A stretch of DNA of 64,000 nt from an uncultured Chloroflexia bacterium. Lineage in GTDB: Bacteria > Chloroflexota > Anaerolineae > CG2-30-64-16. This document shows, one piece after another, positions 13,250 through 41,740 of this stretch; position 1 is the stretch's first letter; each line of letters begins with the position of its first letter. Where the stretch lies: the NCBI GenBank assembly GCA_963774265.1, contig CAVZDU010000001.1:352001-416000 (forward strand), written 5' to 3'. Under the pieces are notes generated by a model. It ran no database searches, was not told where the DNA came from, and saw only the letters and a list, made by a program, of their open reading frames with translations. A program made the position numbers and the translations under genes.

Positions 13250-13252
13250 ACC

Positions 13253-14221
13253 CTACTCCTTGTTGTCGCGTTCCACGGTGACCAGGCCTCTTTCGGCCAA
13301 CCAACTCAAGCCGTCAGCGATCTGTTCCGCCGAGCTGGCATTCCGGAACTCGCAAGTCCGTAAGATGTCGGTCGGGAGATGACGCGCAACCATGTTCCAC
13401 CTCATCTCCCCGTATCCCACGGGCAGGTGGTCATCCATGCCGATGATGTCGTGCAGATGCACGCCGATCATCCTGTCCGCGAAGCGTGTGAGCCAGTCCT
13501 CGTGCAGGCTGTAGCCCTTGTACTCCGATTTTTCCGCATGGCCGATGTCATGCCAGTAGCCGACCGTTTCGCCAAACCCCGACGCGAGTAGCTCATCCAG
13601 TTCGTGAATCAACGGGATATCGAAGTAATGATCGCGGTTTTCCACTCCCAGCCGGACGCCGCGCGGCGCGGCGTATCTGGCCAGCTCACCCAGGCTACGC
13701 CGCACAGACGCCAGGTGCGCAGCGGCTCGCTCGCTGCGCGCGGCCATCATTATCGATTTGGCCTCCTCGTATGCGGGGGTGTCGCGTTTGCCTTCCTTGT
13801 AAAGACGCGTCAACACGGCTTCAAGCGACTCGTCCATGTTCACCCGGCCGGAGTGGACGATCACAACCCGCGCCCCCAGATCGTGGGCCAGGTCTATGCT
13901 GCGTCGAACGGCCTCAACGCCGCGCCGCCGGTCTGCTTCGTCGATCGCAGAAATCAGCCAATCTCGCTCCTTGAGCTCTGCCACCGACACATCCGATGGG
14001 CAAGGCTCATGGACGCTGGTGATGCGCCGGCCGTTGAGGTGCACGCTCTCGAGCATGGCCGAGTCGACGCCATGATTCAGCTCGAAGCACGTGAAACCGG
14101 CCGTTTGCCCGGCCTCAAAGAACTCACCAAAACGCGCAAACCGCTGGATGCCCCACATGGTAGACAGGGCCACATGACACGTTTTCACTGGCCGCACTTC
14201 GGTTGCTTCCCTATTTGGCAC
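13253..14221 (-). CDS. Sugar-phosphate isomerase/epimerase-like TIM barrel (AP_endonuc_2 family)
   Basis: SVHEPCP, VIVHSG, LGVENR, WHDIGH, GVHLHD, DHLPVGYG, TCEF metal-site pattern. Confidence 0.75.
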   Translation of the reverse strand: MPNREATEVRPVKTCHVALSTMWGIQRFARFGEFFEAGQTAGFTCFELNHGVDSAMLESVHLNGRRITSVHEPCPSDVSVAELKERDWLISAIDEADRRRGVEAVRRSIDLAHDLGARVVIVHSGRVNMDESLEAVLTRLYKEGKRDTPAYEEAKSIMMAARSERAAAHLASVRRSLGELARYAAPRGVRLGVENRDHYFDIPLIHELDELLASGFGETVGYWHDIGHAEKSEYKGYSLHEDWLTRFADRMIGVHLHDIIGMDDHLPVGYGEMRWNMVARHLPTDILRTCEFRNASSAEQIADGLSWLAERGLVTVERDNKE

Positions 14222-15437
14222 TTAGAATCTCACTGATCTCACGCGTGGCCCAAAGTGCAGCGCCGGTGGTGTCGACAACCATGTCGCATGCCTCCAGCTG
14301 CGGCAGGTAGCACTTCTGAGCCATCAGAAACTGCTCTCTGAAAAACCTGTTGCGGAAGTAGTTAGGTTCGTATTTCTTCCGATAATCGACGTCTCGTTTC
14401 CATTTCCGCTTCATCCTGACCGCATCATCAGTCAGATATACCACCTTGATCCCGATCAGGTGCGCAACATCACTCAGCAGAAACGGGAAATTGCCCTCGA
14501 CCAAGACGATATCGGCCGGTTCGATCTCGATCGGAGCGCATCCCGGCTTCAGATTGCCGGCCAGGTTATGGCTGGAGGTGGCGCAAACGAAATCGTATCG
14601 AGGAGTGGCGATTTTGTGTCCCTGGCAGATGGCTTCCAGACTCTGTTTGAGAAGCTCAAAATGGAGTGCCTCTTTGCCGAGCGTGTCGATTCCTGTCTCC
14701 TCCCGATAGTCCCGGTCTGTCAGGAAGTTGTCCATCTCAATGGACGCTACTCTTGCGCCCGCCTCTTCAAGCAAGCCGCGCAGGCGCTCGACGATCTCGG
14801 TCTTGCCAGCCGCGGTTGGCCCAGCGACGGCGAAGAGGACAGGCGTTCCTTTAGCCGCGATGAGTCTCCTGGCACTTTCAACAAAGAGCTGATCAACCTC
14901 CGCATTCGCGGCCCTAAAATCCCTGTAGCCAACACCCTGGTAGCGCTCGAAGCGCTTCTGTCGCTGCTCGAAGCTCCTGAAGGGCATGCCCCCAAGGTGC
15001 GCCAACACTCCGTCGGTGAAATAGACCGTGCGGTGCAGAAAGTAGAATCCTCGGATGTCGAAGTAAAAGTGTTCGCCGACCCACTCTAGTGAGTACTCGC
15101 CCGTGACCAAACCAACAAAGAGCACGCGCGTCAGCCTGGCAATGTTCTCATCCAGCACAATCCGGCCGTCGACGCGTGGCTTGAGCTGGATCCGCGCATA
15201 GAAATCACTGCTGTTGACCCGCTTCTCGATCTCCTCCGCCCTGTCGATCTGTACCGAGCCCCAGCCCCCCTCGTCGGGGTAAAGATTCTGCAACGCATAA
15301 CGAAACTCATAAAGTTCCAGGTCCTCGACGCCTGGATTGATCCGCCTCAACTTGTCATACAACGCTTCGGCGAACAAATCCTGATCGGCGAATAGGTTTG
15401 ACACCGGCAACTCGTCCTCCGCTACACTATGCACCAT
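14211..15437 (-). CDS. PRK/uridine-kinase-fold P-loop kinase with unrecognised N-terminal domain (paralog B; start may be GTG 15404)
   Basis: VAGPTAAGKT, IEMDNF, PRYDF, LVEGNF, RMKRKWKRDVDYR. The first ~200 aa are shared with paralog A. Confidence 0.75.
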   Translation of the reverse strand: MVHSVAEDELPVSNLFADQDLFAEALYDKLRRINPGVEDLELYEFRYALQNLYPDEGGWGSVQIDRAEEIEKRVNSSDFYARIQLKPRVDGRIVLDENIARLTRVLFVGLVTGEYSLEWVGEHFYFDIRGFYFLHRTVYFTDGVLAHLGGMPFRSFEQRQKRFERYQGVGYRDFRAANAEVDQLFVESARRLIAAKGTPVLFAVAGPTAAGKTEIVERLRGLLEEAGARVASIEMDNFLTDRDYREETGIDTLGKEALHFELLKQSLEAICQGHKIATPRYDFVCATSSHNLAGNLKPGCAPIEIEPADIVLVEGNFPFLLSDVAHLIGIKVVYLTDDAVRMKRKWKRDVDYRKKYEPNYFRNRFFREQFLMAQKCYLPQLEACDMVVDTTGAALWATREISEILSAK

Positions 15438-16632
15438 ACTTGCCTACGCGACCCGCGTTGGCAAGCGCAATCGGCATGATGTCCTTGGCCGGCAGCACTC
15501 CCAGGCTGCCTCGCGCACAAGCGCGCTCGCCGAACTCGCCGATGCCGTCTGGGCGCACGTGCGGGGCGTACAGCAGCGTCGGCACCGGATGCCAACTGTG
15601 CGATTTAAGCACGGCCGGCGATGAATGGTCGCCACTGACGATTACCACGTCTGGCCCGAGCGACAGCAGGCGCGGCATCAGCGCATCTACCTCCTCAATG
15701 ACGCGCACCTTGCCCGCGAAGTCGCCGCTCTCGCCTGCTGTGTCGGTCTGCTTGACATGCAGATAGAAGAAATCGAAATCTCTCCAATTCTTCTCCAGCG
15801 CGGCAAACTCGTCTGCAATTGTCACGCCCTGGACGGCCAGGGTCGTCATCCCCACGAGTTTGGCAACCCCGCGATACATGCCGTTCACCGCGATGGCGGC
15901 GGCACGGAGGCCGAAAAGCTCCGCATATTGAGGCACCGCGGGAAATCGGGCGAAACCGCGCAGCAGGATCATATTGGCGGGCTGCCTGTCCCGCAACAGC
16001 CGGCCCGCTTGTGTGATGAATTGATTTGCCAGCGCTGCGGCTCGTTCGGAGTCTGGCCTGAGCGCGTTCACCGACAGGGGCTTCACGCCGATCGCTTGTG
16101 GATCCGTCTCGGTCAGGGCATCGCTCAGGCCAGCCCCTCGCATCACAAAGGCGAAACGGTGCTCCTTGACCAGCTCGACAAAGCAGTCGGCGCCGTCGAG
16201 CCGGATCGTCCGCAATAACTCCGCCAGCTCCCGGCTCGCCTCGGTCGGCAGCCGCGCGGCGCGACGATCCGTCAATACCCCCGCCGCGTCAACCGTGCAG
16301 AAATTGCCGCGCGCGGCCACGTCGTCAGGTCCCAGTTCAAAGTCGACCCCGAGCGCCTCCAGCGCCCCGCGGCCGATCTCGTACTCGAGTGGATCGTAGC
16401 CGAATATGGCAAGATGTCCCGGACCGCTGCCCGGTGTAATGCCCGGCCCCACGGGAACGGTCAGCCCCAGCGCCGATTGCGCGGCCAGCGCGTCGAGATT
16501 GGGCGTGGCCGCAGTTTCCAACTCAGTCTTGCCGCCCGGCTCCAACGGCAATCCACCGAGCCCGTCCATGATAATCATCGCAATCTTCGTGCGGGCCGGC
16601 ACAATCAAGTCTTGCAGAAACCTGAGATTCAT
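15427..16632 (-). CDS. apgM: Cofactor-independent phosphoglycerate mutase, archaeal-type (ApgM)
   Basis: MDGLGG, GKTELETAATPNLD, GITPGSGPGHLAIFGYDP, GRGALEALG, RGNF, KQTDTAGE, GDHSSP, HSWHPVP. Confidence 0.85.
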   Translation of the reverse strand: MNLRFLQDLIVPARTKIAMIIMDGLGGLPLEPGGKTELETAATPNLDALAAQSALGLTVPVGPGITPGSGPGHLAIFGYDPLEYEIGRGALEALGVDFELGPDDVAARGNFCTVDAAGVLTDRRAARLPTEASRELAELLRTIRLDGADCFVELVKEHRFAFVMRGAGLSDALTETDPQAIGVKPLSVNALRPDSERAAALANQFITQAGRLLRDRQPANMILLRGFARFPAVPQYAELFGLRAAAIAVNGMYRGVAKLVGMTTLAVQGVTIADEFAALEKNWRDFDFFYLHVKQTDTAGESGDFAGKVRVIEEVDALMPRLLSLGPDVVIVSGDHSSPAVLKSHSWHPVPTLLYAPHVRPDGIGEFGERACARGSLGVLPAKDIMPIALANAGRVGKYGA

Positions 16633-16690
16633 CAGAATGCCCCCATCCCGAAGGTGACGCGATTCCGCAGCAGAAACGGGATGTGTCGTT

Positions 16691-17875
16691 CTAGAGGATT
16701 TCGGCCATTTCCGGCGTTACCCATATGGCTGCGTCGGTCGTATCAACAACAATGTCGCACACCTGCATTTGGGGCTGATAACAGTCCATGGCCCTCAGAA
16801 ACTGAGTCCTGAAGAAACGGTTGCGAAAGTAGTTGGGATCATACTTCTGCCGATAGTCAATATCGCGTTTCCATTTCCGTTTGAGCCTGATCGGATCATC
16901 TGTCAGGTACACCACTTTAACTCCGATGTAGTCAGCCAGCTCCTTGCTCTGAAATGGAAAATTGCCCTCAAGGAAAATGACATCAGCCGGCTCAATCTCC
17001 AGTGGAGCGCAGCCCGGCTTCAGGTTGCCGTCCAAATCGTGGCTGGAGACAGACGAAGTGTAGCGAGGAATAGCGATCCTTTGCCTTTGGATGATCGCCT
17101 GAAGGCTCTCCATAAAGAGTCCAAAATGGTAGGCTTCTCTCCCTAGCGAATTGATGCCCATCTCATCCCGATAGTCGTTGTCGAGAAGGAAGTTATCCAT
17201 CTCGATGGAGGTAACCTTTCTTCCTAGTTGCTCAAGCGCACATCGCAAGCGCGCGACGATCTCGGTCTTTCCAGCGGCCGTGGGCCCGGCAAGCGTGACA
17301 AGAATGGGCGTGCCCTTCGCTGCGACGAGCCTCTTGACACTCTCGATAAAGCACTGATCCACCTGGGCATTAGCCTCTTTGAAGGCTTTGTAGCCCACAC
17401 TCTGGCACCGTTCAAATCGCTTTTGCCCCTGATCGAAGCGCCTCCATGGCTCGCCGTCAAAATGCGCCAACACCTGATCCGTGAAATAGGTGGTGCGACT
17501 CAGGAAGAGAAAACCTCTGATGTCGAAATAGAAATGCGTTCGAACCCACTCTTCTGAGTAGTCTCCCGTGACCAGGCCCACGAAAAGCATGTCGGTCAAC
17601 TGCACGATGTTTTCGTCCAGCACAATCTTGCCGTCGACCAGCGGCTTAAGTTGGATGCCAACATAGAAGTCGCGCGTGCCCATCCGCAGTTCGATATCTG
17701 CCTGGGCATCCAGCTTTACAGACGCCCAGCCTCCGGGCTTAGGGCACAGGTTGTCCAGTGCGTAACGGAATTCGTAGAGTTCCATTTCCTCCACCGCTGG
17801 GGCAATCGACTTCATCTTCTCGTACAGGAGAGAGGAAAAAACATCGGGATTGGACAACATGTGCGATGCCGACAT
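16691..17875 (-). CDS. PRK/uridine-kinase-fold P-loop kinase with unrecognised N-terminal domain (paralog A)
   Basis: LAGPTAAGKT, IEMDNF, FLEGNF, RLKRKWKRDIDYR. Colinear with 14211-15437 along its whole length. Confidence 0.75.
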   Translation of the reverse strand: MSASHMLSNPDVFSSLLYEKMKSIAPAVEEMELYEFRYALDNLCPKPGGWASVKLDAQADIELRMGTRDFYVGIQLKPLVDGKIVLDENIVQLTDMLFVGLVTGDYSEEWVRTHFYFDIRGFLFLSRTTYFTDQVLAHFDGEPWRRFDQGQKRFERCQSVGYKAFKEANAQVDQCFIESVKRLVAAKGTPILVTLAGPTAAGKTEIVARLRCALEQLGRKVTSIEMDNFLLDNDYRDEMGINSLGREAYHFGLFMESLQAIIQRQRIAIPRYTSSVSSHDLDGNLKPGCAPLEIEPADVIFLEGNFPFQSKELADYIGVKVVYLTDDPIRLKRKWKRDIDYRQKYDPNYFRNRFFRTQFLRAMDCYQPQMQVCDIVVDTTDAAIWVTPEMAEIL

Positions 17876-17886
17876 ACAGGTGCCTC

Positions 17887-20184
17887 CTAGCTCGCGACAA
17901 CCTGCCGCCCGATGCCGAACACAAACGCATCGTACGCTCGTTTGGTCTTGGCATAGTTGCCATTGCGATCGAGCGCGATGCCTCTCCCAACGCCCGAAAC
18001 GATTTGCCCGATGCCGATCTCGGCCACCCGGCGTCCCAGTTTCTCCAACAGCGCGGGCGCACTCCCCGGCTCAGTGCTGCGGCCGTCAAAGATCACATGC
18101 ACGTAGACGTCGTTCAAGCCATACGCCTTGGCCATGCGCAGTAGCGCCAGCGGATAGTCAATCGAGCCATGTGAGCTTCTTTCCGAGAGCAGGCCGATCA
18201 GGTGCAGGCTGGCCCCGCGCTGCCGGACGTCCGCTATGGTGCGCAACAAAACCTCGTTGGTGTAGAACGAGCCATCCTGCATCGCCAGGCCTAGCCGCAC
18301 GTCGTCCTGCAGCACCACGCGGCCCGCGCCGATGTTCATGTGACCGGCCTCTGAATTGCCTGGCTTGTCCGCCTGCAGTCCCGCCGCCTCGCCAGCAGCC
18401 TGCAACTGGGCAAGTCCATAGCGCTGCGTCAGTGCGTCCCAGGTCGGCGTCGCTGCGAGCCAGATCGGATTATTCTCGTCCTCCTTGCCGATACCCCAGC
18501 CGTCGAGGATGATGAGCAGCACGCGGCGCGCCCCTCCCCAGTCATGCTCGAGCGCCAGACTTGCGCCATCCATCGTTTGCGGCTGCGGGATGCCGAGCGC
18601 ATGCAGTACGGTCGGCGCGATGTCGGCCAGCTTGCCATTGCGCAGGCGCACGAGCGACGGCCCAGCCGGATCCAGCAGGAGGAACGGCACGGGGTTGGCC
18701 GTGTGCGCGACGTGGGGCGTGCCGTCAGGGGTGGTCAGCTCTTCCAGGTTGCCGTGGTCGGCGGTCACGAGGACGACATAGCCAGCGGCGAGCGCGGCGT
18801 CCACCACCTGCCCCAGCCGCGTATCTACGGCCTCGGCGCACGCGAGCTTGGCGGCGCGGTTAGCCGTGTGGCCGATAACGTCGCCGTTGGCGAAGTTAGT
18901 TACGATCAGATCGTAGTGATCGGCGATGCCGAGCGCCACCCCGGCGGAGACCTCCGCCAGGCTCAGCTCCGGCGCCTGTTCAAAGGGAATCCTGGTGGGC
19001 GAAGGGATGCAGACATCGTGCTCGCCGAAGAATGGCTGGCTATTCCCGCCGTTGAAGAAAAACGTGACGTGTGCGAATTTCTCCGATTCGGCGATACGCA
19101 GTTGGCGCAGACCGGCGCGGGCCACAGCCTCTCCCAGGGTGTCCCTGATCTTCGTCGGTGCGAAGGCCACCGGCAGGTCCTTGAATTTCTCGTGGTAGAG
19201 CGTCAGGATGACGAAGGGGAGGTTGCTGAAATCGCGGCGCGGAAAGCGATCGAACCCCCGCTCGGTGAATGCCTCGGTCAACTGGATCTGGCGTTCGCCT
19301 CGCCTGCAGCAAAAGATCACAGCGTCGCCATCCTCAATCCGGCCAATCGGGGCGCCCTGCGCGTCCACCAGAACCAACGGTTCGAGGGCGTAATCGGTTT
19401 CGCCCTCGCGATACAACTCCCTCACTCCCTCGGCCAGAGCAACAGCGTCGGACGGCACAGGACGTGACGGGAAGATCTCCAGCAGGTCGCTGAGCTTGTG
19501 GATGATGAGATCGGGCCGGTCTTCGTCCGGGACAGGTGCGTCGCGGTCGTCGGGACTCGCCAGGATGATCACACTCCCGAAGCCGGCCTTGCGTGTCCCG
19601 AGGACATCCCGGGCGGTGTTATCGCCTACGTAGGCGCATCGCGCCGGATCAACGCCAGCCAACCGCGCGGCTTCCTGGTAAATGGCCGGGTCCGGTTTGC
19701 GCTTCCCGAAGACGGACGAGAGGATGACCGACTTGAAATAGGGGGCAAGTCCGTCGGCCTCAAGCCAGTCGGGGATCTCCCGGCTGGTGATGACGTTGCT
19801 GATGATCCCCAGAATGTAGCCGCGGCGGTGCAGCTCGAGGATGACTTGCCGGGCATCTTCCTGCACCACCCGCCGCCCCATGGTCTGGCGGTACTGGTAG
19901 GTCAGCTCAACCGCCAGCCCCGCGATCTCGTCGTCCGGATAATCGGGCAGCAGCCAGCGCGTCCACAGCTCGGCTTCAGGGGCTTCGATCAAGTGCTCGG
20001 TCGCCCACTTTCGGTAGACCTGGTAGTGCCGGTCAATCTCCTGGCAGAAGGTCTCGGGGTCTACGTGAGTCCCGACCAGCGTGGCGATCTGCTGCCGCGC
20101 CCGCGCCTGATGCGCCTCGTCTTTCAAGAGGATGCGCAAGGTATTGCCGAGGTCCAGGAAAACGGCATCAATCTCAGGAGTCAT
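17887..20184 (-). CDS. Fusion of a HAD-IA hydrolase and a circularly permuted GpmI-type (iPGM) phosphomutase
   Basis: HAD motifs (FLDLGNTL, ISN, KPDP, YVGD..D), then the GpmI C-half (GETD..DGDAVIF, AESEKFAHVTFFFNGG, NFANGDVIGH, TADHGN, AHTANPVP, LADIAPT), then the GpmI N-half (LIILDGWG, GNSEAGHMNIGAGR, LHLIGLLS, FDGR, GR..DR). Confidence 0.9.
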   Translation of the reverse strand: MTPEIDAVFLDLGNTLRILLKDEAHQARARQQIATLVGTHVDPETFCQEIDRHYQVYRKWATEHLIEAPEAELWTRWLLPDYPDDEIAGLAVELTYQYRQTMGRRVVQEDARQVILELHRRGYILGIISNVITSREIPDWLEADGLAPYFKSVILSSVFGKRKPDPAIYQEAARLAGVDPARCAYVGDNTARDVLGTRKAGFGSVIILASPDDRDAPVPDEDRPDLIIHKLSDLLEIFPSRPVPSDAVALAEGVRELYREGETDYALEPLVLVDAQGAPIGRIEDGDAVIFCCRRGERQIQLTEAFTERGFDRFPRRDFSNLPFVILTLYHEKFKDLPVAFAPTKIRDTLGEAVARAGLRQLRIAESEKFAHVTFFFNGGNSQPFFGEHDVCIPSPTRIPFEQAPELSLAEVSAGVALGIADHYDLIVTNFANGDVIGHTANRAAKLACAEAVDTRLGQVVDAALAAGYVVLVTADHGNLEELTTPDGTPHVAHTANPVPFLLLDPAGPSLVRLRNGKLADIAPTVLHALGIPQPQTMDGASLALEHDWGGARRVLLIILDGWGIGKEDENNPIWLAATPTWDALTQRYGLAQLQAAGEAAGLQADKPGNSEAGHMNIGAGRVVLQDDVRLGLAMQDGSFYTNEVLLRTIADVRQRGASLHLIGLLSERSSHGSIDYPLALLRMAKAYGLNDVYVHVIFDGRSTEPGSAPALLEKLGRRVAEIGIGQIVSGVGRGIALDRNGNYAKTKRAYDAFVFGIGRQVVAS

Positions 20185-28055: not shown

Positions 28056-29063
28056 GTGAAGACCTCCATCAAGGATATTGCCCGGGCTGCCGGCATCTCC
28101 CATTCAACGGTCTCCAGGGCGCTGAACGACAGCCCCCTGGTCAACACCGAAACGAAGGCGCGCGTCCGGCGCCTGGCGCAGGAGTTGGGCTACTCGCCCG
28201 ACGCGGCCGCGCGCAGCCTCGTCAGCGGCCGGACACGCACGGTCGGGGTGGTGGTCACAACCATCGCGGACCCGTTTGTCGCGGTTGTCATGGAGGGCAT
28301 CGAGCGCACGGCCTACGCATGCGGCTATTCCCTGATCCTCGCCGCGTCGCACAACGAACCGCAACGCGAGATCGCAGCAGTCGAGATGCTGCGATCCAAG
28401 CGTGTTGACTCAGTGATCGTGACATCGTCGCGCGTCGGCACGCTGCACCAGGAGCGGCTCGGTTCCGCGGGCGTGCCGGTGATCCTGCTCAACAGCCACA
28501 GCCAGCAAAAGATGCCCAATGCATACTCCGTGCGGGTCGATGACATACACGGCGGCCGACTGGCCACCGAGTATCTGCTCGGGCTTGGTCACCGGCGCAT
28601 CGCCCACGTGGCCGGCCTTGAAGGGCACAGCGATAGCAACGACCGACTCGACGGGTACCGGAGCGCTCTGGACGGGGCCGGCATCGCCTTTGATCCGGCG
28701 TATGTCGTAAGCGGGACCGGCCGGCTCGATGGCGGCCGCGAGGCGCTGCCGGCACTCCTGGAGCTGCGCGAACGGCCCAGTGCCGTCTTCTGCTACAACG
28801 ATATGACCGCAATCGGGCTGCTCTCTGCCGCGCGGGCTGCGGGGGTGGCTGTGCCGCGTGACCTGGCGGTGGTCGGATTTGATGACATCCCATGGGCCGC
28901 GCACGTCACGCCGGCCCTCACCACGGTCGCACAGCCGATGTTCGAGCTCGGCGAGCGCGCAATGAACATGGCTCTCGTGCTCATGAGTCACAAGGGAATC
29001 GCCCCCTGCGATGTGACGGATGTGATCCTGCAGGGACAGTTGATCGTGAGAGAATCCACTTAA
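28056..29063 (+). CDS. LacI-family transcriptional regulator
   Basis: TSIKDIARAAGISHSTVSRALN, GHRRIA, FCYND, VVGFDD, PALTTV. Confidence 0.95.
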   Translation: MKTSIKDIARAAGISHSTVSRALNDSPLVNTETKARVRRLAQELGYSPDAAARSLVSGRTRTVGVVVTTIADPFVAVVMEGIERTAYACGYSLILAASHNEPQREIAAVEMLRSKRVDSVIVTSSRVGTLHQERLGSAGVPVILLNSHSQQKMPNAYSVRVDDIHGGRLATEYLLGLGHRRIAHVAGLEGHSDSNDRLDGYRSALDGAGIAFDPAYVVSGTGRLDGGREALPALLELRERPSAVFCYNDMTAIGLLSAARAAGVAVPRDLAVVGFDDIPWAAHVTPALTTVAQPMFELGERAMNMALVLMSHKGIAPCDVTDVILQGQLIVREST

Positions 29064-29079
29064 TCATCAGGAGGCATGC

Positions 29080-30125
29080 ATGAACAAAATGAAAGCACTC
29101 GTTTTCCGGGGTGGCGGCAAGCTCGAGCTCACCGAAATCCCGATCCCGAAGGTCACGCAGCCCGACGATGTGTTGCTCAAGGTGAAGGCGGTCGGCATCT
29201 GCGGCACTGACGTCAAGATCCTCGAAGGCAAGCACCACTTCAAGCAGAACACGGTGCTGGGCCACGAGTTCTGCGGCGAGGTCGTCGAGGTCGGCTCGCA
29301 CGTGAAGTACATCAAGGTCGGGCGATCGCGTGGCGATTGACAACAACATCCGCTGCGGCTTCTGCTCCTTCTGCCGCATGGGCCTGAGCAGCCAGTGCGT
29401 CGAGATCAAGTTCAATGCGCTCGGCGTGATGCGCGATGGCGGCTACGCCGAGTACTGCGTCGTGCCGGAGAAGCAGTGCTTCGTGCTGCCGGACGAGATT
29501 GACGACGTGCTGGGCACGCAGGTCGAGACGCTGGCGACGGTGGTCAACGGCATGAACACGCTGCAAATGCTGCCCTACGATTACGTGATGATCCTCGGCT
29601 TCGGCCCGATCGGCTATCTCTTCGCCCAGTTCGCCAAGAACATCGCGGCCAAGGTCGCGGTGACCGAGATTGACCCGTTCCGCATCGGCGTGGCGAAGGA
29701 ATGCGGGCTGACGGTCTGGAATCCGAACGAGGTGGACGTAGTCGAGAAGATCACCGAGTTCACCTACGGCCGCAAAGCCGACATCGTGATCGAGGCGACC
29801 GGCAACGCGCTCGACCAGGCGCTCCAGTGCGTGACGCCGGGCGGCAAGGTGCTGCCCTTCGGCATGGATTCGAGCGTCCACATCGACGTGACGCCGAACG
29901 AGATCACCCGCTGGGCGACGAAAGTCCTGGGGCTGTACCTGGGCCAGAACACCATGGTGCCCTCGATCCGCGTCTTCCAGGAGAACCGGCTGAACATGAA
30001 GCCGTTCTTCACCAAGGTGATCCCGCTTGGAGGATGGCCCGGAAGCGTTTTGCGACCTGGGCCTGGACGCCGCGACCATGACCCATGGTCCCAAGAAGGC
30101 TATGAAGATCGTGATGAAAGCATAG
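29080..30125 (+). CDS. Zn-dependent (MDR) sugar/polyol dehydrogenase, frameshifted
   Basis: GICGTD, LGHEFCG, CGFCSFCRMG..C, GFGPIG. Frameshifts near 29325 and 30030; stop TAG at 30123-30125. Confidence 0.85.
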
Positions 30126-30233
30126 CTCCTCCTCACTCCCTCCCTCATCAGGGATGGATGGGGGAGGATGTGAGACGGCATGAAAAAATCAAGCGAGTGC
30201 GCAACGGAGCCGGACACAGACCTTCTGACTTTA

Positions 30234-30262
30234 TTGCAGGCGCTGCGGCGTTCTAATATAAT
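30234..30262 (+). promoter_or_regulatory. Internal promoter upstream of the second dehydrogenase
   Basis: TTGCAG, 17-bp spacer, TATAAT, followed by the operator-like GTGTGATCGTTTCAC. Confidence 0.5.
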
Positions 30263-30297
30263 GAGGGTGTGATCGTTTCACGTTGGCGAGGTGATCT

Positions 30298-31251
30298 TTG
30301 ACTGCATCACGCTACGCTGAACTGGTTGAACCAGGCAAGTTCGCCATCCGGGAAGAAAACCTGGTTCCCTCCGATGACCAACTCCTGATCCGCATCACCC
30401 ATTGCGGTATCTGCCAATACGATGGCGTCTATTACAAGGGCATCGTTGGCAAGACACCCATGAGCATCGGCCACGAACCGGTGGGGATCGTCGAAGAGGC
30501 GGGGCGGAACGTACGAGGATTCGTCCCTGGTGACCGGGTGACTGGCCTGTATGCTTACCTGCGCGCGTTTGCCACCTATGGCTTGGCCGAACCTCATCAG
30601 TTGATCAAAGTGCCCGACCACGTTCCCTCGGAACAGGCCATCGGCGAGCCGCTCAAGTGCATCGGCACGATTCTCCGTGCAGCCCCGCCCGAATTTGGCG
30701 ATCACGTCCTGGTGATGGGCAGCGGTTTTATGGGCTTGCTGGTGCTGGCGGGCCTGGTGGGTCGCGGGGTGGCCTCACTGATTGCGGCGGATGTTCGCGA
30801 AGATCGTCTGTCTTTGGCCAGAGAATTCGGCGCAACCCATACGATCAACGCGCGCGACCCTGATTTCCTGGCCAAGGTGCAGGAAATCACCCACGGACAC
30901 GGAACCGATGTCGTCGTTGAGGTGACCAGCAGCGCCGAAGCGGTGGAAATGGCGGCCAAAACCCTGCGTCGAACCCGCGGCCGGTACGTGCTGGCAGGCT
31001 GGCACGGCCAGCCCGGCACCTATACCCTGCGCAACTGGACTACCCGTGGCGCGATCATTCTGAGCGCCCATCCTTCGTTTTCAATGGATGAGTTTGAGGA
31101 TATGCGCCGGGCGATGGATGGGTTGGCCCGAGGCGTCTTCCCGATGAGCCGTCTCGTCACCCATCGCTTCCCCCTGGACGAGATTCAAACGGCCTTTGAG
31201 ATTGCGATGGCCGGGGCAGATGGCTACATCAAGGGCGTGATTATGCCCTAG
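30298..31251 (+). CDS. Zn-binding MDR dehydrogenase lacking the structural-Zn loop
   Basis: CGICQYD, IGHEPVG, GEPLKC, GSGFMG, THRFPLDEI. No four-Cys cluster. Confidence 0.8.
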   Translation: MTASRYAELVEPGKFAIREENLVPSDDQLLIRITHCGICQYDGVYYKGIVGKTPMSIGHEPVGIVEEAGRNVRGFVPGDRVTGLYAYLRAFATYGLAEPHQLIKVPDHVPSEQAIGEPLKCIGTILRAAPPEFGDHVLVMGSGFMGLLVLAGLVGRGVASLIAADVREDRLSLAREFGATHTINARDPDFLAKVQEITHGHGTDVVVEVTSSAEAVEMAAKTLRRTRGRYVLAGWHGQPGTYTLRNWTTRGAIILSAHPSFSMDEFEDMRRAMDGLARGVFPMSRLVTHRFPLDEIQTAFEIAMAGADGYIKGVIMP

Positions 31252-31279
31252 TCGATGTCACCAGAACAGGCAAAACTTC

Positions 31280-32245
31280 ATGTCAAACCTGGCCGTCGGC
31301 ATAGATATTGGTGGTACCAAAATAGCCGCTGGCGTGATTGACTCGTCGGCTCGGGTCGTGGCCCGGTATATCTCCAAAACCCATGCCGGGCAGCCTCCTG
31401 ACGATGTTATCGCGGCCACTGTGGAAGCTTTTCACGCCGTTCTTGCTCAGGCTGGCTTACAGCGAGGCCAGGTAGCCGGCTTGGGTGTAGGTTTCGGGGG
31501 GCACGTTCACGGGGCAGCCGGCCTTATCTTGACCAGCAGCAATTTGCCGGCCTGGGACAATTACCCTCTGCGCGACCACTTGCAGACCCGTCTCGGCGTG
31601 CCGGTTATCCTGGAGAATGACTCGAACTGCGCTGCCTGGGGTGAGTACCTCTTCGGAGCCGGGCAGGGATCACGCTACTTGTGCTATGTGACCTTTAGCA
31701 CCGGATACGGCCTGGGAGTGGTCATTGATGGTAAGTTGTATGTCGGCGCCACGGGCACTACCGGCGAGTTGGCTCACATCGTCGTCCACCCTGACGGCCC
31801 GTTGTGCACTTGCGGCAAGCGTGGATGCCTGATCTGCTATACGGCGGGGTTAGGTATTTCCCGGCTCGTGCGTGAGCGGCTCGACCGGGGTGAACAGACG
31901 CTGCTGCGCGAGTTGTGTGGTCCGACACCTGCTCGGGTGGCCGGGGAAATCGTCGTTCAAGCTGCCGAACGAGGCGACCAGATGGCCCAGGATGTCCTGG
32001 CCATCGCCGCGCGCTACTTTGGTATCGGCCTGTCCAGCGTGGTCCAAATGTTCAACCCTGACCGGATTGTTATCGGTGGAGGGTTGGCGCATGTCAAGCA
32101 CTGGTTAGTTGAACCGGGCTTGGTTGCGCTGCGGGAAAATGTTCATCCCGTGTTGCACAACTCAGCCGAGATCGTCTTCTCCCAACTATGGGAGGACGCG
32201 GGCATAATCGGCGCGGCGTCCCTGGTGTGGGAAGTTAAGGTATGA
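31280..32245 (+). CDS. ROK-family sugar kinase
   Basis: GIDIGGTK, ENDSNCAA..E, STGYG, GELAH, CTCGKRGC, IGGG. No N-terminal HTH. Confidence 0.9.
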   Translation: MSNLAVGIDIGGTKIAAGVIDSSARVVARYISKTHAGQPPDDVIAATVEAFHAVLAQAGLQRGQVAGLGVGFGGHVHGAAGLILTSSNLPAWDNYPLRDHLQTRLGVPVILENDSNCAAWGEYLFGAGQGSRYLCYVTFSTGYGLGVVIDGKLYVGATGTTGELAHIVVHPDGPLCTCGKRGCLICYTAGLGISRLVRERLDRGEQTLLRELCGPTPARVAGEIVVQAAERGDQMAQDVLAIAARYFGIGLSSVVQMFNPDRIVIGGGLAHVKHWLVEPGLVALRENVHPVLHNSAEIVFSQLWEDAGIIGAASLVWEVKV

Positions 32246-32321
32246 GGCGCACGCCTTTACAGGCGTACGCACCTTTGCAGGGGAGAGTCAACCGTCACGT
32301 CAGCGGAGCAAAGGAGCTGTC

Positions 32322-33107
32322 ATGAGTGAGGCAACACCCGTTATCGAGGCGCGCGGCATCTGTAAGTATTTCGGGGCCATCACCGCGTTGGAGGATGTCA
32401 ACCTCCGGCTCATGAAGGGCGAAGTGCTGGGGGTCGTCGGCGATAACGGCGCCGGCAAAAGCACGTTGATGAAAGTGCTGGCGGGCATGTATCCACCCAA
32501 CAAAGGCGAACTGCTGGTTCAGGGAGAGTCGCTGCACTTCCGCAGTCCCCGCGATGCGCGCGACCGCGGCATTGAGATGGTATATCAGGATCTCGCACTG
32601 GCAGGCAACATGCGGATTCACGAGAACATCTTCCTGGGCCGCGAACACACCCGCAATGTACTCGGGTTCATTCCCCTGGTCAATCACAAATTGAATGCGG
32701 TGGCCGCGCAAGAACACCTGGATCGGCTCAAAATTCAGGTCAAGAGCGTGAACCAGCGAGTGGAGGAGCTATCGGGCGGACAGCGCCAGGCCGTCGCCAT
32801 CGCGCGCGCCACCGCGTTCGACGCACATGTAGTCATCATGGACGAGCCGACGGCGGCGTTGGCCATCAAAGAGGTCAGCAAAGTGCTCGACCTGATCAAG
32901 GACCTAAGGGATAACGGCATCGGCGTTATCCTGATCAGCCATCGTTTGGACGACATTTTCTATGTCTGCGACCGGATCATGGTGCTGTTCCATGGGCACA
33001 ACTTCGCCGAAGCACCTCTGAGTAAGACCGACCGCAATGAAGTTATCGGCTGGATCATGGGCAACAAGCGCAAGGATAACGGACCCGCAAGCACCGACCT
33101 GCATTGA
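32322..33107 (+). CDS. Sugar ABC ATPase (single NBD)
   Basis: GDNGAGKST, VYQDLAL, LSGGQRQ, MDEPTAAL, ISH. Confidence 0.9.
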   Translation: MSEATPVIEARGICKYFGAITALEDVNLRLMKGEVLGVVGDNGAGKSTLMKVLAGMYPPNKGELLVQGESLHFRSPRDARDRGIEMVYQDLALAGNMRIHENIFLGREHTRNVLGFIPLVNHKLNAVAAQEHLDRLKIQVKSVNQRVEELSGGQRQAVAIARATAFDAHVVIMDEPTAALAIKEVSKVLDLIKDLRDNGIGVILISHRLDDIFYVCDRIMVLFHGHNFAEAPLSKTDRNEVIGWIMGNKRKDNGPASTDLH

Positions 33108-33141
33108 TGCACGCGCATTCCAAAGGATAGAGGGCAATCCC

Positions 33142-34158
33142 ATGACAGACTCACCTATCTCGCAATCGGAAACCGCCCGCCAAGAAAGCTTGCGCATCAA
33201 ATTAATACCCTTCATTGATCGCTACGGCGTGCTGCTGCTCGTAATGGCGATGGGAGCGGTGTCCTACCTGCTTGAACCCGAAGTGTTCCTGACGTGGGGC
33301 AATATCAGCAACATTTTCCGCCAGATTGCATTCAACGCCATGCTTGCGCTTGGCGAGTTTCTTGTGATCCTGACGGCAGGCATTGACCTGTCCGTCGGCT
33401 CAGTGCTGGCGCTAGCGATGATGTCCACCGCCGTATTGGGGCGAGATGGTTATCCGACACCGGTCCTGCTCGTGACACCCCTTCTCGTCGGCATGGCCTG
33501 CGGAATCGTCAACGGGCTGGGCCTGACCAAGCTCAGGCTGCCCCACCCGTTCATCATGACGCTGGGCATGCTCAACATTGCCCGCGGCGTGACGAATCTG
33601 ATTTCGGGCGGCGTGCCGATCAGCGGCCTGTCTGAGCCGGTGCGCTGGATGGGCGCGAGCAATATCACCATCGCGAACGTGGAAATTCCAGTGAGTCTGC
33701 TGGTGATCGTGGTGGCTTATGCGCTGGTTGGAGTCTTTTTGCATTACACGCGCACAGGCCGGCATATCTATGCTATCGGCGGCAATCCGCAGGCCGCGCG
33801 CGTGAGCGGCATTAACGTGGATCGCACGTTGGTGCTGGTGTACGGCCTGTGCGGTATGCTGGCCGGTTTCTCCGGTCTGTTGTTGGCCGGGCGCACCGGC
33901 TCGGGTTTTCCCAACGCGGGCCTGGGCCAGGAACTGGACGCGATCTCGGCCGTCATCATCGGCGGCGCGAGCTTTTTTGGGGGGCGCGGCTCAGTGTTGG
34001 GCGTGTTTGCAGGCGCGCTGATCATCGGCCTGCTACGTAACATCTTGAACTTGCAGAATGTGCAGGTCTTCTGGCAGCAGGTGTTCATCGGCGTGGTGAT
34101 CATCGGCGTGGTGTATTTTGACGTGCTGCGCCGCCGCGCCGGTTCGACGAACGCCTAG
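33142..34158 (+). CDS. Sugar ABC permease (RbsC type)
   Basis: ILTAGIDLSVGS, PFIMTLG, GRHIYAIGGNPQAARVSGI, ELDAISAVIIGG. Confidence 0.92.
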   Translation: MTDSPISQSETARQESLRIKLIPFIDRYGVLLLVMAMGAVSYLLEPEVFLTWGNISNIFRQIAFNAMLALGEFLVILTAGIDLSVGSVLALAMMSTAVLGRDGYPTPVLLVTPLLVGMACGIVNGLGLTKLRLPHPFIMTLGMLNIARGVTNLISGGVPISGLSEPVRWMGASNITIANVEIPVSLLVIVVAYALVGVFLHYTRTGRHIYAIGGNPQAARVSGINVDRTLVLVYGLCGMLAGFSGLLLAGRTGSGFPNAGLGQELDAISAVIIGGASFFGGRGSVLGVFAGALIIGLLRNILNLQNVQVFWQQVFIGVVIIGVVYFDVLRRRAGSTNA

Positions 34159-34338
34159 AGCACCGGTCAAGGTGTCCCGGAACGATTGTGACCCGGCCCG
34201 TTCAATCGGTGACGCAATGACAGGAGGTGATGTATGTAGGAGGAGATGCGGTGCCCGCATCCAGCAAGTTGCTCGACTCTCGGAGCTGCACTGGCAGCCC
34301 ATATCTGAATCAGGTCACTCACCTAACAAGGAGGAACT

Positions 34339-37114
34339 ATGAAGGTCTTTAGGCTCGTAAGCCTGTTGATCGTCGCGGCCATCGTCCTGACGTCGTGCGC
34401 CACCCCCACAGCTGCACCGCAACCCACCTCCGCCTCTGCGCCGGCGGCAGCTCAACCGACTACGGCACCGGCTGCGCCAGCAGCAAAGCAGCCCCAGGAC
34501 ATCAAGATCCTGGTGAACATGAAGGGACCTGGCGGCGGCAACCCGTTCTGGGCCGCCGTGGAACAGGGCGCGATCGACGCCGGCAAGGCGCTCGGCGTGC
34601 AGGTGACTGTGATGGCGCCGCCGGCCGAGTCCGACGTGCCCGCGCAGATTGCCCAGATCGAAGACGCACTGACCAAGGGTGTGGACGGCATCGCGCTCGC
34701 ACCGACCGATCCGGCCGCGCTCGCACCGGTCGTGCAGAAGGCACTGGACAAAGGTGTCAAGGTGGTGTTCATTGACACCAAGGGCCAGAACGAAGGCGTC
34801 ACCTTCATCGGCACCAACAACGAAGCCGGCGCCAAGCTGGCCGGCGATTACATGTGCAAGAACCTCAAGTCGGGCGACAAGGTCGCCATCTTGCAGGGCC
34901 TCATCACGCAAAGCACCGGCAAAGCACGCGCCGATGGCTCCAAAGCCGGCCTCTCGGCCTGCGGTCTCAACATCGTCGCTGAAACCCCAGCTGAATGGGA
35001 CACGGCCAAGGCCCAGGCTGCCATGGAAGACATCCTGACCAAGAACCCCGACCTCAAGGGGGTCTTCGGCAGCAACGACAACATGGCGCTCGGTGCCGTC
35101 GAAGCCATCAAGAACGCTAAGCTCACCGGCAAAGTCATGGTGGTCGGCTTCGACGCCAACCCGAACGCGGCGGCGGCGGTGTTGGCGGGCCAGATGAACG
35201 CGACGGTGGCCCAAGCGCCGTCAAACATGGGCAAGTTCGGCGTCGAGAATCTGCTCAAGCTGATCCAGGGTGAGACGATCCCCGGCAACATCGATACCGG
35301 CACGGAACTCGTCACCATCGACAACGCGGCCAAGTATGCACCCGCCGGAGCAGCGCCGGCAGCGGCAACGAAGGATCTCAAGGACATCAAGATCCTGGTG
35401 AACATGAAGGGACCTGGCGGCGGCAACCCATTCTGGGCCGCCGTGGAGCAGGGTGCGAAGGACGCCGGCAAGGCGCTCGGCGTGCAGGTGACTGTGATGG
35501 CGCCGCCGGCCGAGTCCGACGTGCCCGCGCAGATTGCCCAGATCGAAGACGCACTGACCAAGGGTGTGGACGGCATCGCGCTCGCACCGACCGATCCGGC
35601 CGCGCTCGCACCGGTCGTGCAAAAGGCGCTGGACGAGGGTGTCAAGGTGGTGTTTGTTGACACCAAGGGCCAGAACGAAGGCGTCACCTTCATCGGCACC
35701 AACAACGAAGCCGGCGCCAAGCTGGCCGGCGATTACATGTGCAAGAACCTCAAGTCGGGCGATAAGGTCGCCATCTTGCAGGGCCTCATCACGCAAAGCA
35801 CCGGCAAAGCGCGCGCCGATGGCTCCAAAGCCGGCCTCTCGGCCTGCGGTCTCAACATCGTCGCTGAAACCCCAGCTGAATGGGACACGGCCAAGGCCCA
35901 GGCTGCCATGGAAGACATCCTGACCAAGAACCCCGACCTCAAGGGGGTCTTCGGCAGCAACGACAACATGGCGCTCGGTGCCGTCGAAGCCATCAAAAAC
36001 GCCAAGCTCACCGGCAAGATCATGGTGGTCGGCTTCGACGCCAACCCGAATGCGGCGACGGCGGTGCTGGCGGGCCAGATGAACGCGACGGTGGCCCAAG
36101 CGCCGTCAAACATGGGCAAGTTCGGCGTCGAGAATCTGCTCAAGCTGATCCAGGGTGAGACGATCCCCGGCAACATCGATACCGGCACGGAACTCGTCAC
36201 CATCGACAACGCGGCCAAGTATGCACCCGCCGGAGCAGCGCCGGCAGCGGCAACGAAGGCAGCTCAAGGACATCAAGATCCTGGTGAACATGAAGGGACC
36301 TGGCGGCGGCAACCCGTTCTGGGCCGCCGTGGAGCAGGGTGCGAAGGACGCCGGCAAGGCGCTCGGCGTGCAGGTGACTGTGATGGCGCCGCCGGCCGAG
36401 TCCGACGTGCCCGCGCAGATCGCCCAGATCGAAGACGCACTGACCAAGGGTGTGGACGGCATCGCGCTCGCACCGACCGATCCGGCCGCGCTCGCACCGG
36501 TCGTGCAAAAGGCGCTGGACAAGGGTGTCAAGGTGGTGTTTGTTGACACCAAGGGCCAGAACGAAGGCGTCACCTTCATCGGCACCAACAACGAAGCCGG
36601 CGCCAAGCTGGCCGGCGATTACATGTGCAAGAACCTCAAGTCGGGCGACAAGGTCGCCATCTTGCAGGGCCTCATCACGCAAAGCACCGGCAAAGCGCGC
36701 GCCGATGGCTCCAAAGCCGGCCTCTCGGCCTGCGGCCTCAACATCGTCGCTGAAACCCCAGCTGAATGGGACACGGCCAAGGCCCAGGCTGCCATGGAAG
36801 ACATCCTGACCAAGAACCCCGACCTCAAGGGGGTCTTCGCCAGCAACGACAACATGGCGCTCGGTGCAGTCGAAGCCATCAAGAACGCCAAGCTCACCGG
36901 CAAGATCATGGTGGTCGGCTTCGACGCCAACCCGAACGCGGCGGCGGCGGTGCTGGCGGGCCAGATGAACGCGACGGTGGCCCAAGCGCCGTCAAACATG
37001 GGCAAGTTCGGCGTCGAGAATCTGCTCAAGCTGATCCAGGGCGAGACCATCCCCGGCAACATCGACACCGGCACAGAACTCGTCACCATCGACAACGCGG
37101 CCAAGTACAAGTAA
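34339..37114 (+). CDS. RbsB-type sugar-binding lipoprotein with three tandem near-identical binding domains (1-bp indel near 36260)
   Basis: Lipobox LTSC. The domain KILVNMKGPGGGNPFW..DTGTELVTIDNAAKY occurs three times, joined by APAGAAPAAATK. Single stop at 37112-37114. Confidence 0.85.
34498..37110 (+). repeat. Three tandem ~885-bp direct repeats
   Basis: GACATCAAGATCCTGGTGAAC starts at 34498, 35383 and 36269. Copies differ by scattered substitutions. Confidence 0.95.
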
Positions 37115-37124
37115 TCGGCATCCG

Positions 37125-37171
37125 GGTTCCCAGGTCGCAAAGTGCGTGCCAGCCTTTGCGGCCTGGGAACC
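37125..37171 (+). terminator. Stem-loop 3' of the binding-protein gene (terminator or mRNA stabiliser)
   Basis: GGTTCCCAGGTCGCAAAG..CTTTGCGGCCTGGGAACC. No U-tract. Confidence 0.6.
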
Positions 37172-37186
37172 GCAATCGAGGCAAAC

Positions 37187-38201
37187 ATGACAGACAGAGT
37201 CAACATCGCCGTCATCGGGACGGGGCGTATGGGCAGCGTCCACACGCGCAACCTGGTGCGCAAAATCCCCGAAGCTAACGTCGCCGCGGTGTGCGACATC
37301 CGACTGGATGTCGCACAGACCCTCGCCGACGAGCTCGGCATCCAACGGGTCGTGGCAGACTATCACGAGTTGCTGGCCGATCCAGATATACCGGCCGTTC
37401 TCATCGCGACGCCGACAGATACCCATACCATGATCATCGAAGACGCGGCTCGAGCGGGCAAGCACATTTTTTCCGAGAAAGCCGCTCTCGCTCGATCTGG
37501 CCAGCATTGACGCGGCGCTGGACGTGGTGGAGCAGGCCGGGGTCAAGTTGCAGGTAGGCTTTAACCGGCGTTTCGATCAGAGCTTCAGGCGCCTCCGAGA
37601 AGTCGTGGCCTCGGGCCAGATTGGCCGGCCCTGCATCTTGCGCATCACCGACCGCGACCCGGAGCCGCCTCCGATTTCCTACATCAAGAACGCCGGCTGT
37701 ATCTTTCTCGACCTGACCATCCACGATTTTGACATGGTGCGTTACCAGATGGGGGATGTGGAAGAAGTCTATGCAACCGGCAATGTCCTGATCAACCCGG
37801 AGATCGGTGAAGTGGACGATATCGATACCGCCGTGGTCACGTTGCGCTTCGCCAACGGCGCGCTCGGTTTGATTGATAACAGCCGCCAGGCCGTGTATGG
37901 CTACGATCAGCGCCTCGAAGTGCTGGGGACAACCGGCGCGGTTATGGCGAATAATCAGACGATAGACACAGTTTCGCAAGCCGACGTTAATGGTTTTCAC
38001 TCATCCGTGCTGCCCCACTTCTTCATGAACCGGTATGCGGAAGCGTATGTGACCGAAGTGCGGGAGTTTATCGAATGTGTTCGGGACGACAAGACGCCAT
38101 CGGTCACCGGGCGTGACGGACGACTCGCGGTGGTGCTTGCCCATGCCGCTATCAGGGCATGGAAAGAAAATCGTCCGGTCAGGTTGAGTGAGATCGGATA
38201 G
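37187..38201 (+). CDS. iolG: myo-Inositol 2-dehydrogenase (Gfo/Idh/MocA), frameshift near 37480
   Basis: IGTGRMG, ATPTDTH, SEK(P), QVGFNRRFD, RDPEPPP, FLDLTIHDFD, NSRQAVYGYDQRLEV. Confidence 0.88.
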
Positions 38202-38260
38202 GACGGCTCTCCTTTGGACGCCCAGCCCGTCCCTAATCTGCAACCATCAGGAGCTACTTC

Positions 38261-39386: not shown

Positions 39387-39415
39387 ACTCAGTCCAAGGT
39401 GGAACTTGCAGGCAT

Positions 39416-39444
39416 ACCTCCAAGGTCTCGGAGACCTCGAAGGT
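39416..39444. repeat. Short palindromic REP-like element
   Basis: ACCTCCAAGGTCTCGGAGACCTCGAAGGT, an imperfect palindrome in the iolN-iolM spacer. Confidence 0.55.
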
Positions 39445-39505
39445 TTGTGTAGGCAGGTTCCATCTTGGAATCAATATAGGGCCGACTAGGCGAGGAGACA
39501 ACAGC

Positions 39506-40704: not shown

Positions 40705-40901
40705 AAACCAGCAGTCTTGAGATGGCCCTGCGTCGCAGGTGTTCGCAGGGCCAGGTCGGGAGAGCGATGAAGATCCAGTTTCTCGGCACCGGCACCGGCC
40801 TGCCCAGCCGTGGTGGCTGGGCTGATGAACGAGGACGGGGAATGAATAGAGAGAGGCAAGAGATCGGAAACAGGATCGCCCAGGGCGGTCGCCCAGGGCG
40901 A

Positions 40902-41717: not shown

Positions 41718-41740
41718 ACGTCACACCTTCAGGAGGGGCA

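Follow-up and report, generated by a model that had tools for sequence, protein, structure and literature searches.

What do two paralogous kinases, each encoded directly downstream of a different mutase gene, do in an uncultured bacterium of the Anaerolineae? The question arises from a 64,000-nucleotide stretch (the window) of contig CAVZDU010000001.1 in assembly GCA_963774265.1 (positions 352,001 to 416,000); the genome to which it belongs (G000) is 84% complete. A preliminary description gave the gene order as cpGpmI, kinase A, apgM, kinase B and proposed that the kinases run backwards, making ATP from an imported inositol polyphosphate. Here we describe kinases A and B, by sequence comparison, as a distinct subfamily of a common P-loop kinase fold that recurs in an operon of related genomes, and we tentatively propose a forward, ATP-using role for them. 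All genes of the operon in the window lie on the minus strand, and the four at its center are consecutive open reading frames whose order and coordinates are exactly as first given:

17887..20184, minus strand: HAD-permuted iPGM gene, 765 amino acids (open reading frame call)
16691..17875, minus strand: kinase A, 394 amino acids (open reading frame call; PF00485, 58.6 bits at residues 193-379)
15427..16632, minus strand: apgM-type cofactor-independent phosphoglycerate mutase, 401 amino acids (NF003160)
14211..15437, minus strand: kinase B, 408 amino acids (open reading frame call; PF00485, 66.3 bits at residues 203-390)

Only 11 nucleotides separate the end of the 765-amino-acid gene from the start of kinase A, and kinase B overlaps both the end of apgM and the start of the next gene (13253-14221) by 11 nucleotides each.

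Fold and conserved residues of the kinases

Kinases A and B are 64% identical (252/396). PF00485 is the sole Pfam match of either protein (E of 0.01), and both exceed its gathering threshold of 22 bits. The phosphoribulokinase (PRK)/uridine kinase fold first assigned to them is borne out by this match and by structure searches, and all of the motifs quoted in its support are present in both translations. Each kinase divides into three parts, given here for kinase A:

17480..17875, minus strand: residues 1 to ~132, family-specific N-terminal domain, mostly helical with two short hairpins
17315..17479, minus strand: residues ~133-187, helices before the P-loop that superpose on the N-terminal extension of type I pantothenate kinase (PanK)
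16694..17314, minus strand: residues 188-394, P-loop kinase core containing the Walker A motif (GPTAAGKT), the catalytic Asp227 within EMDNF, and the basic lid (330-356)

An AlphaFold model of kinase A, built with a 36-sequence alignment, predicted a confident single body (pLDDT 93.4; pTM 0.88). Foldseek matches to this model were confined to its C-terminal half and were headed by UCK2, PRK, and PanK, with UCK2 6n54_B the best (E of 1.8e-11; 23-24% identity). UCK2 and UCK1 were also the best sequence matches in a profile search of the PDB, where UCK2 (E of 5.8e-17) aligned with kinase A residues 187-345. The Walker A motif, Asp227 (equivalent to UCK2 Asp62), and Arg330 and Arg333 (equivalent to UCK2 Arg166 and Arg169) were invariant in the 36 sequences and at least 97% conserved in a larger set of 98 kinases; residues G197, G202, K203, T204, D227, R330, and R333 are invariant in the family. 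Across the 98 kinases, 67 positions are at least 97% conserved, and at least 13 Arg/Lys are among the invariant or nearly invariant residues. Because so many positions are conserved and the gene order recurs in related genomes, the pair is not a chance observation. The lid motif is very basic in both proteins, with 11 Arg/Lys among 27 residues in kinase A (330-356) and 12 among 27 in kinase B (341-367). We regard the fold and the predicted catalytic competence of both kinases as solid.

The N-terminal region (N-domain), which the preliminary description could not assign, has resisted assignment here as well, with no Pfam, fold-search, or Atlas match found. Its content of Phe, Trp, and Tyr is 13.3% and 14.2% in the two proteins, compared to 10.2% and 9.0% in the kinase halves. 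Neither the first 192 residues of kinase A nor the first 200 of kinase B matched a Pfam family even at an E of 10. Residues 1-188 folded alone gave a model with a pLDDT of 86.1, for which the best Foldseek match had an E of 2.7 (no relative) and the best Atlas look-alike scored 0.84, under the usable range. A CYTH/triphosphate-tunnel domain, considered on the basis of alternating charged residues, was rejected since the model is mostly helical and matched no such fold. Searched as residues 1-188, the domain proper (about 130 residues) thus appears to be family specific and without a known relative, and it may be a new fold.

Relationship to known kinase families

The closest comparison is with human UCK2 and Thermus Udk, whose Walker A motif, catalytic Asp, Tyr..His acceptor loop, and Arg residues of the lid recur in kinases A and B. 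We take Asp62 of UCK2 to be catalytic, Asp84 and Tyr65 to contact ribose and base, and Arg166 and Arg169 to belong to the lid. The kinase positions aligned with UCK2 Tyr112, His117, Arg166, and Arg169 are invariant across the family, whereas those aligned with Asp84 and Tyr65 are variable (Leu/Met/Gln) and Leu, respectively. Kinases A and B further differ in carrying about 190 additional N-terminal residues, in their much more basic lid, and in lying in an operon without nucleoside genes. Both fall far below the cutoffs of the udk equivalog models NF004018 (62.2 and 58.7 bits versus 180) and TIGR00235 (51.2 and 44.9 bits versus 220.3).

Scores to the phosphoribulokinase model NF005655 were 75 and 63.8 against a cutoff of 236, the C-terminal extension of phosphoribulokinase is missing from both proteins, and the N-domain differs too. 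Type I PanK (CoaA; 4bfs and 1esm) shares only 13-16% identity with the kinase, has no counterpart of residues 1-132, and is represented by a model, TIGR00554, that did not match the kinases at an E of 0.01. Similarity to D-glycerate 3-kinase (GLYK) and to the ABC-operon kinase FrcK (3c8u) is weak (E of 3.4e-4 and 0.0056), and neither has an N-domain comparable to that of kinases A and B; GLYK is no closer to the kinase than UCK2, PRK, or FrcK and lies well under PanK. The known inositol-phosphate kinases (IPK, ITPK1, and IPK1) share neither fold nor family with kinases A and B, whose fold matches are all P-loop proteins; ITPK1 and IPK1 have ATP-grasp and IPK folds, unrelated to P-loop kinases. 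Because the curated udk, PRK, and PanK models score far under their cutoffs or are absent, and because the N-domain has no relative, the two proteins are, on sequence grounds, a distinct and undescribed subfamily of the PRK/uridine-cytidine kinase/PanK fold that is not udk, PRK, or PanK.

Relatives of the kinases are called 'uridine kinase' in JGI annotation. Automatic annotation would thus make them uridine/cytidine-type nucleoside kinases with an added regulatory domain. This reading draws on UCK2 and UCK1 as best PDB matches, on the conserved equivalents of Tyr112, His117, Arg166, and Arg169, and on one group of loci (that of L028, see below) in which the kinase module adjoins a Bmp-type ABC system, but it is very unlikely given the low udk equivalog scores, the loss of the Asp84 and Tyr65 equivalents, the lack of nucleoside-catabolic genes in the operon, and the presence of a canonical udk-like gene elsewhere in G000 in a lineage where the family is accessory (8 of 151 genomes in an even sample of the class Anaerolineae). 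G000 also encodes a MOFRL glycerate kinase and a type III PanK; no match to PF02595 was seen in this 84% complete genome. A housekeeping role as PanK, udk, or glycerate kinase was rejected on the basis of the same patchy range and these separate genes.

Range of the family

A word-indexed search found 2,364 relatives of the kinases among 8,000 scored candidates; the 120 relatives listed were 379-417 amino acids long and 69-100% identical. An exhaustive search of 1.84 billion representatives gave 369 matches at an E of ≤0.001 and 38 at ≤1e-30. Only the kinases' own family matched the N-domain (residues 1-190) in that search, and generic kinases aligned from about residue 186 with E near 1e-9. 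A distant relative of 351 amino acids (P0268) has part of the N-domain in common (hhalign 99.4%; 27% identity), and none of the clusters of distant family members carries a name.

Among species-representative genomes, 106 relatives were confirmed and 79 loci were kept, to which all locus counts below refer. Chloroflexota lineages account for 76 of the 79; the other three are short contigs of differently labeled metagenome-assembled genomes. These three loci (L058, L069, and L072, labeled Chitinophagales, Bacteroidota, and Syntrophothermus) have the typical Anaerolineae gene order on contigs of 7.8-9.5 kb, and their labels are probably binning errors. The family is almost confined to Anaerolineae. 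Even close relatives may lack it: three 99%-complete genomes from the family of the window's bacterium have no kinase, binding protein, apgM, or any iPGM over the cutoff, and because these near-complete sisters have none of it, the block in its entirety is an accessory trait.

Two kinase types

The 98 kinases fall in a tree into a primary type, which every locus has and to which kinase B belongs, and a second type of 18 sequences that comprises kinase A and intact copies in 17 of the 79 loci; the copy in L066 is in two pieces. A single kinase is found in 61 of the 79 loci. The second-type gene lies either between the two mutase genes or in tandem after the first kinase. All catalytic residues are kept in both types. 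Position 361 is Arg in 18/18 second-type and Met in 79/80 primary-type sequences, and the second type has gaps in the loops aligned to UCK2 83-84 and 112-117, which are acceptor-binding loops in UCK2. The two types look like an old duplication with divided specificity, and since position 361 and the acceptor loops differ, they probably act on different substrates or at different positions.

The surrounding operon and its importer

On either side of the four central genes, the operon in the window continues as follows:

26924-27613, minus strand: RpiR/SIS regulator
25069-26904, minus strand: fused double permease of the importer
24093-25136, minus strand: ATPase of the importer
22537-23868, minus strand: binding protein of the importer
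21668-22432, minus strand: single HAD protein
20174-21661, minus strand: double-HAD protein
13253-14221, minus strand: AP_endonuc_2 TIM-barrel protein
12257-13249, minus strand: PiT phosphate transporter

A similar set recurs across the loci: one or two single HAD genes, the HAD-permuted iPGM, apgM, one or two kinases, RpiR, the fused double permease, ATPase, and binding protein, a HAD gene, the double HAD, the TIM barrel, DUF47, and PiT. Gene families and recurrence bear out the import-operon setting first proposed for the kinases. At least one mutase gene is present in 72 of the 79 loci. Where at least 6 kb of upstream sequence was available (61 loci), 54 loci had the permuted iPGM and 46 had apgM; the two occurred together in 45 and were both missing from 6. 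Of the 98 kinases, 48 had apgM directly upstream, 15 had permuted iPGM, 12 had a further kinase, 5 had the TIM barrel, and 3 had a HAD gene; the remaining 15 had none of these. The adjacency of mutase and kinase, on which the preliminary description had staked its proposal, is therefore conserved: 63 of the 98 kinases directly follow apgM or permuted iPGM, and 12 more follow a kinase. Membership of the kinases in this operon and the operon's accessory distribution are solid.

The operon also varies. L068 and L070 carry the kinase without nearby mutases, and in the L059 genome, the one checked of three Anaerolinea genomes in which the kinase stands alone (L053, L059, and L061), the rest of the cluster lies on another contig. 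Three loci (L028, L034, and L038; about 11800-18600) have HAD-permuted iPGM, apgM, and kinase with no Afu-type importer nearby, and next come genes for a PfkB kinase, a Bmp/PnrA-type ABC system, and an ADP-ribosylglycohydrolase; a search of the L028 genome found no IolN. In 28 loci (e.g., L010:8594-9943 and L013:11945-13189), and not in the window, a gene for an MFS_3 (EntS-like) transporter lies either between apgM and the kinase or just 3' of the kinase. In 33 loci, the upstream region includes a LacI gene in divergent orientation. A promoter and terminator scan of 11800-28300 in the window returned fewer sites than shuffled sequences and no informative site within the operon. The divergent region that separates this operon from the next contains a sigma-70-like promoter near consensus (TTGACA, 18 nucleotides, TATACT; 11/12 matches) at 27926-27955 on the plus strand, upstream of LacI. 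Among sequencing runs listed for this DNA there was no RNA run, only DNA runs of small share from soil and wetland metagenomes.

The binding protein, a weak match to the Fe/AfuA/P5PA binding-protein family, was found in 11 of the 151 class-sample genomes, namely, all 8 that bear the kinase and 3 others. A lipoprotein-like signal opens the protein, and a stretch of Pro/Ala/Thr repeats of about 55 residues separates it from the folded domain. Systems of the Fe/AfuA/P5PA group are reported to carry hexose or heptose phosphates and pyridoxal phosphate (PMC4546632, PMC8427247). Together with the RpiR/SIS regulator and the PiT transporter, the importer group points to an organophosphate as the imported compound. 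In 48 orthologues of the binding protein, 65 positions are at least 95% conserved, and these include 2 Arg, 3 Lys, and 1 His versus 7 Asp and 4 Glu, as well as 4 Trp and 4 Tyr. With so few conserved basic residues and these Trp and Tyr residues, a ring ligand with few charges would suit the protein, and the inositol phosphates InsP3-6, the substrates first suggested, fit it poorly (6 basic versus 11 acidic residues).

Mutases, HAD proteins, and the TIM barrel

The 765-amino-acid protein combines a HAD domain (residues 5-235) with an iPGM (TIGR01307; 466 bits in two stretches versus a cutoff of 330.65). The halves of the iPGM are swapped relative to PDB 1EJJ: query residues 310-515 align with chain residues 5-210, and query residues 8-300 align with chain residues 218-509. 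The alignment (390 bits) describes a circular permutation with new termini near residue 214 of 1EJJ. The metal ligands and Ser62 of 1EJJ are retained. From the phosphoglycerate-binding set, which we take to be His123, Arg153, Asp154, Arg185, Arg191, Arg261, Arg264, and Lys336, all are kept except Asp154, which is Ser. This retention argues against the earlier suggestion that a mutase moves phosphate around an inositol ring. The apgM protein exceeds its equivalog cutoff (NF003160; 555.8 bits versus 468) as well as that of TIGR00306 (356.4 versus 320), and 128 of its positions are at least 95% conserved over 53 orthologues. A housekeeping role for the operon mutases was rejected: the three 99%-complete sister genomes lack apgM and any iPGM over the cutoff, and G000 has eight His_Phos_1 genes.

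These mutases bring in a second candidate function, in which the kinases phosphorylate glycerate or a close hydroxy acid, and both adjacent mutases interconvert 2- and 3-phosphoglycerate on the way to lower glycolysis. The conserved residues of the binding protein, the phosphoglycerate-binding set of the iPGM, and the setting of the L028 group keep this possibility alive. It is nevertheless unlikely, since a MOFRL glycerate kinase is already present in G000, GLYK is no closer to the kinase than the other families compared and ranks well under PanK, and the importer, the four to five HAD domains, PiT, and the inositol neighborhood described below would be left unexplained.

It is also conceivable that the kinases serve the mutases themselves, either by making a priming bisphosphate or by docking through the N-domain and phosphorylating the catalytic Ser, the pair acting as a two-part phosphotransferase. 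Phosphopentomutase, a member of the same superfamily, needs bisphosphate priming, the kinase-after-mutase order is tight and conserved with overlapping genes, and the N-domain lacks an assigned role. Such an arrangement is extremely unlikely, however, because iPGM and apgM are by family cofactor independent, kinase and mutases lie apart in the L059 genome, and L068 and L070 have no mutases nearby.

The HAD domains of the operon are atypical. In all four of the window (17887-22432) and in those of the 79 loci, motif I has the form hDxG(G/N)T, except that the first half of the double HAD has DA(G/A)D. The nucleophile Asp remains, and the Asp two residues on, which is the usual acid/base of HAD phosphatases, is absent in sets of 63, 44, 98, and 96 aligned copies. 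Their closest solved relative is human HDHD3. The positions of the TIM barrel (13253-14221) that reach at least 95% conservation in 35 orthologues include 7 His, 5 Glu, and 3 Asp; among named proteins, the phosphodiesterase CbiR and MJ1311 are its nearest relatives. It looks more like a multimetal phosphoesterase than a sugar isomerase.

Inositol neighborhood

About 20 kb from the kinase operon, the window encodes IolG and IolN in a second operon:

28056..42577, plus strand: divergent inositol-catabolism operon with LacI, two IolM-like dehydrogenases, ROK kinase, a sugar ABC system, IolG (split), an IolN fusion, and a second TIM barrel

IolN scored 254.5 bits with NF041098 (cutoff, 245), and IolG scored 295.5 bits with TIGR04380 over positions 111-330. 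Judging by NCBIfam model names, the IolG, IolN, and IolM-like set presumably corresponds to the enzymes of the Thermotoga-type inositol pathway. IolG is split between two frames (37142-37510 and 37524-38201), and the coaX and udk-like genes of G000 are likewise split (G000:C10:230799-231414 and G000:C9:508-1063); all three splits are probably assembly indel errors rather than pseudogenes. IolN, a 3-dehydro-scyllo-inosose hydrolase, occupies residues 59-308 of an 819-amino-acid open reading frame (38261-40720), the remaining ~500 residues of which matched no Pfam or NCBIfam family. The ABC system on the inositol side includes a 735-amino-acid protein with two sugar-binding-protein domains (Peripla_BP_4) in tandem (34339-36546). 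The second TIM barrel is no close paralogue of the one in the kinase operon.

The association extends beyond the window. IolN lies 13-23 kb from the kinase in five of the eight genomes assessed (G000, G106, G138, G004, and G007), a count that leaves aside four genomes with the genes on different contigs and one (G050) with only an IolN fragment. Of the 79 loci, 14 contain an IolG homologue with 42% identity or more (IolG is single copy in G000), and in L032, L046, and L047 the genes after the kinase are IolB, an IolG-like gene, and a TIM barrel. The link of the kinase operon to inositol, first suggested for the window, and here to inositol catabolism, finds support in these neighboring genes: it is real and is not universal.

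It is against this background that the original proposal must be judged. In that proposal the mutases would shift the phosphate of an imported inositol polyphosphate, and the kinase would then pass it to ADP in substrate-level phosphorylation. An operon with an importer, many phosphoryl-transfer enzymes, and PiT, the neighboring inositol genes, and the basic lid are all compatible with it, as is the precedent of a reversible inositol-phosphate kinase of another fold, ITPK1, which is called an InsP6/ADP phosphotransferase in the title of one study (PMC8573591). The earlier comparison with ITPK1 and IPK1 stands to the extent that transfer of phosphate to ADP by ITPK1 fits that title; the folds are different, and the analogy is mechanistic only, limited to the proposed exchange of phosphate between inositol phosphate and ADP/ATP. 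Several features, however, speak against reversal: the conserved residues of the binding protein suit a ring with few charges rather than InsP3-6, the permuted iPGM retains its phosphoglycerate-binding set, and 61 of the 79 loci manage with a single kinase. In addition, ordinary phosphomonoesters have too low a transfer potential for making ATP. ATP-forming reversal on polyphosphorylated inositol is therefore disfavored, and we consider it very improbable as an account of the kinases. A broader version, in which kinase-mutase pairs would form a phosphate-conserving route in fermenting Anaerolineae, is speculative and also improbable. There, iPGM-type mutases would walk the ester phosphate of an imported inositol or sugar phosphate from position to position, and it would then be passed to ADP by the kinases, or kept so that ATP-consuming activation is bypassed, and the N-domain would be a new acceptor-binding or mutase-docking fold.

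Proposed role of the kinases

The reading that we favor, which is plausible rather than probable, is that the enzymes are forward, ATP-using kinases whose acceptor is an anionic intermediate (a sugar, cyclitol, or sugar acid) derived from an imported organophosphate; they would act together with the mutases and with two acceptor specificities. An AfuABC/Fbp-type ABC system would import the organophosphate under control of the RpiR/SIS regulator. Its phosphate would be handled by the four to five atypical HAD domains, the permuted iPGM, apgM, the metal-dependent, phosphoesterase-like TIM-barrel protein, and PiT. The kinases would transfer phosphate from ATP onto an intermediate that is already anionic; we infer this direction and this class of substrate, and at least 13 conserved Arg/Lys residues of the kinases suggest an anionic acceptor that they would bind. 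The neighboring mutases would reposition the phosphate ester. The two kinase types would probably divide the labor by substrate or position.

Several observations weigh against this proposal. The kinase positions equivalent to the UCK2 nucleoside contacts Tyr112 and His117 are conserved. The phosphoglycerate-binding residues kept by the permuted iPGM and the equivalog-level score of apgM mean that the mutases may simply act on phosphoglycerate, and phosphoglycerate-type mutases would in turn suggest glycerate-type chemistry rather than cyclitols. In L053, L059, and L061 the kinase is alone amid housekeeping genes, and in L028, L034, and L038 the module adjoins the PfkB kinase and the nucleoside-type (Bmp-type) ABC system. 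The inositol link is also looser in some genomes: the distance between IolN and the kinase is 84 kb in G003 and 350 kb in G006, no IolN was found in G005, and IolN is common in the class anyway, occurring in 70 of the 151 genomes compared to 7 of the 8 that bear the kinase.

Implications

A literature search found no publication describing the cluster. The kinases mark a conserved, uncharacterized organophosphate operon in Anaerolineae of soil, sediment, and bioreactors. This operon combines unusual enzymes, including a permuted iPGM, HAD proteins without the usual acid/base Asp, and a kinase with an unassigned domain. A single-kinase version is present in the cultured Levilinea saccharolytica KIBI-1 (locus L062), which makes the question of its function testable at the bench. 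If the substrate is indeed an inositol phosphate, the operon would provide these bacteria with a cytoplasmic route to a major pool of soil organic phosphorus without any known class of phytase.

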